NCBI RefSeq assembly: GCF_009931435.1
Contig: NZ_CP043414.1
Reading direction: 5' to 3' (one strand)
From: Escherichia coli
Lineage (GTDB): Bacteria; Pseudomonadota; Gammaproteobacteria; Enterobacterales; Enterobacteriaceae
Length of the DNA stretch: 64,000 nucleotides
A program made the position numbers. Numbering within the stretch: position 1 is the first letter of the stretch; each line of letters starts with the position of its first letter. Positions 36,001 through 39,000 of the stretch are shown here, piece after piece.

Positions 36001-39000
36001 GAAGATAAAGAAAAACCAATGTTTCCTGTTTTTTTAAAGACGAAAATTGGTGCGTTACCTCAACTGGGAAGAACTGTTGATACAAATTTGAAAGTTTTTG
36101 ATATATCCGAGCCAGTTGAGTATTTTAATCGAGATATAATCACCAGAGTGCTAACGCAAGTTTTTACTTCTCCGTTAGATAAATTAAATAATTATTTAAA
36201 GGCTAGCGTATCTATTGGACCGTTAAGAATTATACCTGATTCTTCATTTACGCCAAATCCTTATCCAGAACAAAATGGATGGTTTGATGGTACATCAGCA
36301 TGGGATAAGCTGTGTTTATCTCAACAAAATGATAGTGATTTGATTAAAAAAGTAAGTGATTGGTTTTCCAATAGAGATAAACTAAACACTAATTATAATA
36401 TATTTAGTGGAGGAGAATTTGATATAAAAACCTCCCCTCAACTTTTAGGTCTGAAAGATAATGTTTACTTCTGTAAAATAGATTCAAGCCAAATGTTATT
36501 TCCAAATCAAGTCGGTGTCGGATTAACTCAGATAGCACCTCTTATTATTGCAGCCAATATAGTTCAGGATGGATTAATTGCTATAGAGCAGCCTGAGCTA
36601 CATATTCATCCCGCTTTACAACTCGCTGTAGGTGATCTGTTTACCCAATATCCCCTTGATGTTAAAAGACCTATGTTTTTAGTCGAAACACATAGTGAGC
36701 ACATTTTGCTTCGAATTTTAAAAAGAATTAGACAAACAACGGACAATGAATTACCTGAATCAAATTACCCAGTAAAACCTGATTTTATATCAGTGATCGT
36801 TTTCGAGGATAATAATGGTTCGACTGTTACTAGGAAAATAGATATTACTGATGATGGTGACTTCAAACAAAAATGGCCCAAAGGTTTCTTCGAAGAAAGA
36901 AGGGGAGAGCTTTTTTAATGTTCTACGAATGCGCCATTTCACCAGAGGCTTTGTTTGAGATCGCAATTGATCGGAGAAATTATCGTGACTTCATAAAAGG
37001 ATTTTCTACGGGCGGTAACTTTCTCTATAGTGAATTACCAAAGCTGAAGAGAAATAAAAAACAATTGCTTGGGCTATTAAATGCTAATCATAGTGAACTT
37101 CAAAAAAAACGATTAGAGGACCTTATTATTTTTTTGAAAAATAATAAGGTTAGTAGGGTTTATGATTATGTTGGTGACATGTCATGGTCAGATAACATCT
37201 CTGCTGTAAATCGAATTGAACAATTTGATCATGTAGTGAGTTCTACTCCTTGTGATAACCTTGATGTAACTAATATAGATGATTTCTTTGGGTTAAATTA
37301 TGCTCGGCAAAAAATTGTTGCTAGAATTGCTGAGGATATGATATCTATAATCTCACGCTTATTAAAAACATCAGAGCATATTATTATAGTTGACCCATAC
37401 TTTAGTGACAAACAAAGATGGTGGAATGTATTTATTTCATTACTTAGCGTTAGTGCTAATAACTCTTATAAAAAAAATTTAAAGATAGATGTTATATTTG
37501 ATGGGAGTAAAGAAAACTCCCCAACGGTGAATTATTTGGCTAATAAGTTGAACCGCGAAAACCTTGTCTTTCCAGACGATTTTAAATTATCAGTAACATT
37601 TAAGTCTTTAACTTCTCGCGAGGGTAATGAACGTCTGCATAATAGATATGTTCTTTCTAATGTTGCTGGAGTTTGTTTCATGCATGGTTTAGATGAGGGA
37701 GAAGGAACGGATGATGTCTCAATTTTGTCGAAAGAGGGATATAATAAAAGATGGGAACATTACACTACGAATAATGTTTTTGATTTAATAGAAGAGCGTG
37801 AAGTTATATGTTAAGTATTTCCCTTACTGTTTTCAATTAAATCCTACAAACTTATTAGGACCCTTTAAAATTTATTCAACACGCCAATAAAAAATCTAAT
37901 TCTATTAATCTTGACCTGGTCTATCAAAATGATAGACCAGGCTTCTGTTATCTACATTACTTCTAGTGAAATAGCCAACCAATCGTCCCTATAAGGCAGG
38001 TTAAATAGTTTTAATTTAGCAAATTTGATAAACAACTCACTCGCCATTACCCCGATTGATCTTCGCATAGTCAAACGGCGTAATCGCTCTCTCCCGATTG
38101 GCATCCAGAAAATCTGCCCACCACTGCAGCATCAGCTTGCGCTCATCCAGATGCTCCGCTTTATGGATATACGCTGCCTGCACTGAGTTACGTCCATGTG
38201 GCTCATCTGACGTTCAGCCGCTTTATCTCGTGCTGTTCTGGTCTCAATACTTCCATGCCGTTGCAATTACCTCTTAAACCATTCCTTACCATTTTCATGT
38301 CTTCGATAAGAAATCTTCATCATGCATGATCGATTTTGTCGATCGATTCGATCGAATTTTCTCTTTTTACCCTGCCTTTTGCATGGTTTTAAAATAGGCA
38401 AAATTACTTGTCATTCGTGGAAAATGATGGCGGAGATAACTGAGCTTAAAAAGTTTCTCTTGTCTCCGTCACTTGCCATACCAGCCAGGAAAAGAAGATG
38501 TCAGCACAAGAAAAAACAGTACAGATTGATTCTTTTGATGCGAAATTTTTAGATATAAATACATTAAGCAAGCTTATCTATGAACGTAAGAGTTTTGTGA
38601 TAGAAAATGTTTCCGATGTTAGTGAAACGGTAAAAAGAGTGGAGCATGAAATAGAGAAAAGGAAATTAAGTTGTCGTGTATATACTGAGTACAGGAGCAC
38701 AGCTTTAGCTGGTTCTTTATGGTCACCAACCGTAATTCTGGGAGTGGCGAGTGCAGTAGCAATAGGTGTTCATAATTTATCTACATGGAACCCCGATTAT
38801 GAAATCGGTAAGAACTATATTAAACGGAGATTATCGGTAAAATATAAAAAGGCAGAAGTATTGTGATCGGTTACTCCAGTGCCCCTGCCTGTTCGTATTC
38901 TGGTGAGGTTGTATACACATAATTTCAGGCTGGCGTTCACGTCCTCACTGAGGAAATATATTTATTTTGTGTAGAGTAAAAGTCTGGCTTCCGTAGTGTG

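Follow-up and report, generated by a model that had tools for sequence, protein, structure and literature searches.

The window analysed here, a 64,000-nt stretch of Escherichia coli DNA, carries the 3′-terminal stub of an integrase gene on its minus strand at about 38 kb. Judged from its sequence, the stub is an inert pseudogene of a P4/IntB-type tyrosine integrase and is predicted to be unable to recombine DNA, because both DNA-binding domains are lost, only two of the six active-site residues remain, and what is left is frameshifted. It was best explained as the outcome of one old truncation, which has probably spread together with a head module across the leuX, pheU, and selC islands; the truncation itself would have been created neither in this strain nor at selC. 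As a gene remnant the stub is already known, being an ordinary annotated integrase pseudogene (RefSeq/PGAP) that is typical of mosaic islands. The features of the window are summarized in Table 1.

Table 1. Location, strand, and basis of assignment of the features discussed in the text
Feature	Position	Strand	Basis
attR, the distal att repeat of the selC island (24-nt exact copy of the selC 3′ end)	5235–5258		blastn-short with tRNA-Sec from 97-3250
Cargo: type I restriction-modification genes (R, M, S), 540-aa AAA ATPase, 313-aa protein	29010–37814	+	PADLOC REase_I, MTase_I, Specificity_I
3′-terminal relic (about 61 codons + stop) of a P4/IntB-type tyrosine integrase gene	38037–38222	−	tblastn, nhmmer, alignment, PGAP
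Conserved spacer replacing the 5′ 85% of the integrase gene	38223–38456		junction common to six sampled stubs; spacers 85–100% identical
Variable segment of ~610 bp with a 122-aa ORF (38498–38866)	38457–39065	+	present in some module variants
Hra/Hek/Tia-family outer-membrane beta-barrel protein, 248 aa	39084–39830	+	PGAP; weak NCBIfam adhesin/OmpW-type hits
Phosphoethanolamine transferase, 500 aa, intact; tRNA-proximal end of the module	40015–41517	+	NCBIfam CptA/EptA-type, E 7e-31
IS1, left end of an IS1-Tn21::Tn3(TEM-1) resistance unit reaching the window end	41649–42416		97-3250 synteny ends at 41648; IS1 match

Identity and extent of the integrase stub

The first-pass annotation had placed a C-terminal integrase fragment at 38037–38213 on the minus strand, where a stop-to-stop frame of 58 codons with the C-terminus ...LMLQWWADFLDANRERAITPFDYAKINRGNGE* was found. 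This identification was confirmed by tblastn, nhmmer, and NCBIfam matches. In tblastn, WP_001531241.1, the intact 422-aa leuX integrase of E. coli Ecol_244, matched the stub with 48/51 identities (94%) over residues 372–422, with E values of 1.5e-30 for the local region and 4e-27 for the whole window. A profile of six intact integrase genes matched it in nhmmer at E = 2e-50, covering profile positions 1080–1263 of 1266 (window 38222–38044), and the NCBIfam integrase domain PRK09692 was detected at E = 1.2e-4. The similarity to tyrosine integrases, on which the identification depended, was thus strong. The closest intact relative found was the leuX integrase gene of Ecol_244, with 91% nucleotide and 94% amino acid identity. 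The stub was 83–85% identical in amino acids to the pheU integrase of NCTC9022 and the integrase of SCU-122, and 79% identical in nucleotides to the integrase beside leuX in K-12 strain BW25113, which we take to be intB. Over 97% of its length, WP_001531241.1, representing the parent family of the stub, was 57% identical in amino acids to phage P4 Int.

While the C-terminal nature of the relic stood, its 5′ limit had to be moved. Integrase homology extended for about 10 codons, past 38213 to about 38222 (AAERQMSHMD against AVERQMSHME), and a 1-bp deletion near 38192 had put this extension into another frame. The whole relic was found to comprise about 61 codons, or 187 of 1266 nt. Of the catalytic residues, the last His (MSH) and the nucleophilic Tyr (AAY) were retained, in different frames. 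The arm- and core-binding domains were lacking, as were the Arg, Lys, and His-x-x-Arg of the active site; HGFR (parent residues 342–345) was missing. Accordingly, the stub resembles phage P4 integrase and K-12 IntB (KpLE2) in its C-terminus, including the MSH and AAY motifs, but compared with these enzymes it is a frameshifted relic of about one-seventh of the gene and not a working member. The significant similarity over the retained part indicates descent from the P4-like tyrosine recombinase family, whereas the DNA-binding domains and the complete one-frame catalytic set of a functional P4-like integrase were both absent. The 100%-identical stub of strain 97-3250 is labelled by PGAP as "integrase, frameshifted, incomplete, missing N-terminus".

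Unrelated sequence had been described in place of the 5′ part of the gene, and this was upheld. No integrase similarity was detected upstream of 38222 by tblastn with four intact integrases (E > 0.05) or by nhmmer with the six-gene profile. Weak MAFFT matches upstream of 38222 were considered as degenerate homology to the HGFR region and were rejected, as the nhmmer envelope ended at 38234 and the 100 aligned columns before the junction showed only 31–42% identity to intact integrase genes. When the remaining 5′ part was sought across the whole window by tblastn and nhmmer, only an unrelated, non-collinear scrap of 66 nt at 27785–27850 was found.

The conserved junction and the head module

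The junction was searched for in 5426 complete E. coli genomes using a 331-nt query spanning it, with at least 80% of the query covered. It was found in 853 genomes (about one in six) with 81–100% identity, and a small sample of nine loci was inspected in full. On comparing the junction with those of related islands, all six of the full stubs sampled were found to break at one nucleotide, corresponding to integrase codon ~361, with the spacer on one side and GCGGCTGAACGTCAG on the other. Moreover, the 1.1 kb around the stub was 100% identical in 60 complete E. coli genomes, including 97-3250.

The gene order from the tRNA toward the cargo was tRNA, intact integrase, optional genes, phosphoethanolamine transferase, Hra/Tia-family outer-membrane protein, stub, and variable cargo. 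This order was seen at selC (97-3250), pheU (NCTC9022 and A12), and leuX (S30, 317, and 204), and the other genes between the transferase gene and the integrase were present in the selC islands, 317, and SCU-122. In every locus examined, the genes for the outer-membrane protein and the transferase were linked to the stub, with which they travel. In pap-carrying islands, these two genes were kept and the stub was deleted partly (SCU-122) or wholly (ST131), and in K-12 a phosphoethanolamine transferase pseudogene lies beside the leuX integrase.

In relatives, the spacer lies immediately 5′ of the outer-membrane protein gene. The ~610-bp segment that follows it was present in the window, in 97-3250, and in ST131 (split by ISEc12), and absent from NCTC9022, S30, 204, 317, and A12; its 122-aa ORF had no family match in NCBIfam. 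Where the segment is present, about 700 bp separate the outer-membrane protein gene from its usual upstream region. The product of this gene was 98.8% identical in amino acids to the 97-3250 copy, which PGAP names "outer membrane protein". Alleles elsewhere are named "invasion outer membrane protein Tia", and across islands the alleles were 62–93% identical in amino acids, ranging from Tia-type to Hra/Hek-type. The phosphoethanolamine transferase was 94% identical in amino acids to the copies in five other islands and was frameshifted in 97-3250 and NCTC9022. The homology between islands stopped at 41503–41591 at the transferase end.

The window and its relatives share the integrase-then-adhesin order of tia-PAI and LIC at selC and of SE-PAI, LAC, and LAA module I at pheV, with the transferase gene between integrase and adhesin and the stub beyond the adhesin gene; in the window, the tRNA-proximal part is cut by IS1/Tn21. 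According to passages of the main text of the papers on tia-PAI, LIC, SE-PAI, LAC, and LAA, the integrase adjoins the tRNA and tia or hes lies a few kb inside, and these passages do not mention an integrase stub beyond the adhesin gene (PMC5539235, PMC6455142, PMC7545054).

A separate observation concerned the spacer, in which three GATC (Dam) sites were located within 26 bp at 38328–38356 (GATCGATTTTGTCGATCGATTCGATCGAA). The cluster was identical or differed by 1 nt in nine of the nine loci, while the surrounding spacer was only ~85% conserved, and it lay 88–89 nt upstream of the outer-membrane protein start codon where the 610-bp insert was absent. The 64-kb window has only three GATC clusters of this kind. 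The cluster in the spacer could be a candidate methylation-sensitive switch for the Hra/Tia adhesin family; a single full-text search found no literature on a methylation switch at this cluster.

The selC island and the resistance unit

The left flank of the window consisted of nlpA-yicL-setC, and the attR reported at 5.2 kb was verified as an exact repeat of the selC 3′ end. From the flank and the repeat together, the element was therefore recognized as a selC island of the E. coli type, which the window enters at the distal end. ARAGORN and Rfam detected no tRNA genes in the window, and the sole Rfam match was the integron attI/aadA leader (RF02912) at 60058–60136. The window was 98.9% identical to the island of 97-3250, with the homology stopping at 41648. 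In 97-3250, the stub is followed by a 122-aa hypothetical protein, the outer-membrane protein, the phosphoethanolamine transferase, a gene fragment, and a TPR protein, after which an intact 394-aa integrase (WP_001218900.1), tRNA-Sec, and yicJ were found. The working integrase lies 5.1 kb and selC 6.6 kb to the right of the stub. The end of the window falls inside Tn21, 3.3 kb of relative-genome sequence before selC. Among complete E. coli genomes, the best full-length matches to the nlpA-yicL-setC flank and island start (window 1–9000) were only about 96% identical, and the exact island configuration of the window was in none of the complete E. coli genomes searched.

From 41649 to 64000, the window contained an IS1B-bounded Tn21 derivative with Tn3/TEM-1 inserted in merP, followed by mer genes, IS1326, and the class 1 integron sul1-qacEdelta1-aadA1-intI1. 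The first 4.35 kb, 41649–46000, was compared and showed no difference from a unit located at ydjH in E. coli AHB18, and the AHB18 order beyond it matched the ORFs of the window. As the same IS1-Tn21 unit occurs at ydjH in AHB18, it was therefore regarded as an independent mobile insertion. IS1 and Tn21 were absent from the otherwise 98.9%-identical island of 97-3250, and the junction of the transferase with IS1 was shared by no complete E. coli genome searched. By these comparisons, IS1 and Tn21 are separate, recent arrivals and the sole separate material to the right of the stub. The first-pass annotation had assigned all right-hand material to a separate acquisition; this held for IS1 and Tn21 and failed for the outer-membrane protein and phosphoethanolamine transferase genes, which are linked to the stub.

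Origin and spread of the stub

Although the junction was invariant in position, the sequences on its two sides appear to have had different histories. The spacers were 85–100% identical, while the integrase-derived stub parts were only 60–77% identical between groups. The stub of the window was 91% identical to the Ecol_244 leuX integrase, and that of S30 was 91% identical to the A12 pheU integrase. In Ecol_244, an intact integrase is followed by a phosphorothioate-dependent restriction gene, and in A12 the stub is followed by the same gene; the 94% homology between the two ended exactly at the truncation point. Compared with 317 (leuX), the window differed in identity by segment: hsdR/M reached 98.7%, the stub with its spacer 96.3%, and the genes for the outer-membrane protein and the transferase 86.5%. 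The disabling lesions also varied. A −1 deletion was present in the stubs of the window, 317, and A12, with an extra +1 insertion in 317 and A12; the stub of NCTC9022 had an in-frame stop, and that of strain 204 had a 12-nt deletion plus a +1 insertion. As these lesions differ between lineages, the coding sequence of the stub is therefore not under selection.

The preferred explanation is that, in one old truncation, integrase codon ~361 became fused to DNA from upstream of a gene for an Hra/Tia-family outer-membrane protein. Most likely, two P4-type islands would have stood in tandem at one tRNA gene beforehand, and a deletion would have removed the inner att repeat and the 5′ part of the distal integrase. 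The resulting junction would then have been inherited and spread horizontally in a head module of ~3–3.5 kb (transferase, outer-membrane protein, spacer, and stub), which in the leuX, pheU, and selC islands has the working integrase on one side and the variable cargo on the other. Subsequently, homologous recombination in the conserved 3′ sequence of the stub would have swapped the stub tail together with the adjoining cargo, and a similar exchange would have moved the block into the selC island of the window. The stub lineage was often mismatched to the current tRNA site, as shown by leuX-type stubs in pheU and selC islands and a pheU-type stub in a leuX island. On its own, tandem accretion in situ therefore cannot account for the present copies, and extra exchange steps have to be assumed. 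No tandem array with an intact second integrase beside the spacer was found among the loci examined. The selC island of the window holds a block that is also present in leuX- and phe-type islands, which is consistent with exchange between them.

A further, tentative proposal is that the stub serves as a portable homology arm of ~187 nt, through which mainly anti-phage defence cargo might be swapped between tRNA loci without site-specific recombination; we consider this possible but rather doubtful. Since all P4-type integrase genes have a 3′ end that is matched by the stub, DNA of an incoming island could cross over in it. Such crossovers would explain why an invariant junction carries tails of different integrase lineages, each co-varying with the cargo.

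Integrase remnants inside mosaic genomic islands are textbook knowledge, and cryptic or truncated integrase genes are known from E. coli pathogenicity islands. As in those islands, modules of different origin meet at a seam that is marked by the internal remnant. Unlike mosaic islands generally, one seam is common to three tRNA loci here, and the stub tail has apparently been exchanged with the cargo. The shared seam and exchanged tail are a detail rather than a new principle. The stub is nevertheless useful as a landmark, as it shows where the conserved head module with the transferase and adhesin genes gives way to variable cargo rich in defence genes.

The 3′ end of an integrase gene could also have been duplicated by a Campbell-type event, in which circular DNA carrying the transferase, the outer-membrane protein, and an integrase 3′ end was inserted by one homologous crossover at the 3′ end of an integrase gene already resident. 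The ~187-nt segment would then be present twice, one copy completing the working integrase and the other forming the stub. The arrangement agrees with this, as same-strand integrase 3′-end repeats bracket the module (the intact integrase nearer the tRNA, the stub nearer the cargo), and the stub tail co-varies with the cargo as expected of the resident half. However, the two copies in a genome were only 65–82% identical (43% in amino acids at selC), in A12, S30, and the selC islands the working integrase had an N-terminal part of another lineage than the stub, and transferase and integrase are separated by other genes in the selC islands, 317, and SCU-122. Thus, a Campbell-type origin was considered unlikely.

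The first-pass annotation had instead taken the stub for the integrase of the selC island itself, at the place where this integrase was expected, and had proposed that a local deletion removed its 5′ part and the adjoining tRNA, leaving an integrase-less and likely immobile island with separate DNA to the right. The truncated 5′ side with its unrelated DNA, the attR, and the later insertion of IS1 and Tn21 accord with this account. However, the identical junction in 853 genomes, in selC, pheU, and leuX islands, argues against a deletion local to this island, and relatives such as 97-3250 keep an intact, unrelated selC integrase and selC itself 5–6.6 kb to the right. The stub was only 43% identical in amino acids to WP_001218900.1 over 35 residues, as against 94% to the leuX integrase. 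Because of this low identity, and since the closest intact relative is at leuX, the parent enzyme of the stub is an unlikely source of the selC-derived attR at 5.2 kb, the C-terminal 60 residues being insufficient on their own to show site specificity. The constant linkage of the outer-membrane protein and transferase genes to the stub also speaks against separate right-hand DNA. As for the lost tRNA, no selC, leuX, or phe tRNA fragment longer than 10 nt was present at 38.0–39.1 kb; a partial tRNA or att repeat may have been deleted along with the 5′ part of the integrase. A local deletion therefore appears very improbable. The stub gives no ground for calling the island immobile, and the window ends inside Tn21, before the position of the selC integrase.

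That the stub has a present function, as a small protein (a 48-codon GTG ORF), a cis element, or a terminator for its neighbours, is hardly credible: it has been kept in many lineages and the hairpin after the integrase stop codon is retained in some variants (NCTC9022), but its frameshifts, in-frame stop, and 12-nt deletion differ across lineages, it is partly or wholly gone from pap-carrying islands in which the outer-membrane protein and transferase genes stay, and no Rfam family matches it.

Cargo on the stop-codon side of the stub

On the stop-codon side, divergence between the three cargo types (window, 317, and A12/Ecol_244) started within about 5 nt of the stub stop codon. The cargo elsewhere consisted of SIR2, Dpt, a TerB/helicase set, or a phosphorothioate-dependent nuclease. 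In the window, the 540-aa AAA ATPase gene and the overlapping 313-aa ORF lie at 35296–37814 on the plus strand, right after hsdS; in strain 317, a SIR2 gene occupies this position. The ATPase matched the PADLOC models PDC-M55A (1e-40), NsnB, and AriA, and the 313-aa ORF had no match to a PADLOC defence family and no convincing NCBIfam match. Together, the two genes may form a candidate two-gene defence system riding with the type I restriction-modification genes.

A second integrase relic, the 66-nt scrap at 27785–27850, was located on the minus strand and corresponded to residues 318–339 of P4-type integrases (VRDNTVNKPLKVIGYDTTKEVC; nhmmer E 3.5e-8). It adjoins a transposase fragment (27891–28433) and lies about 0.4 kb inside the left end, at about 27.4 kb, of the block with the restriction-modification genes, a block that is shared with 97-3250. 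This relic is another seam of the mosaic.
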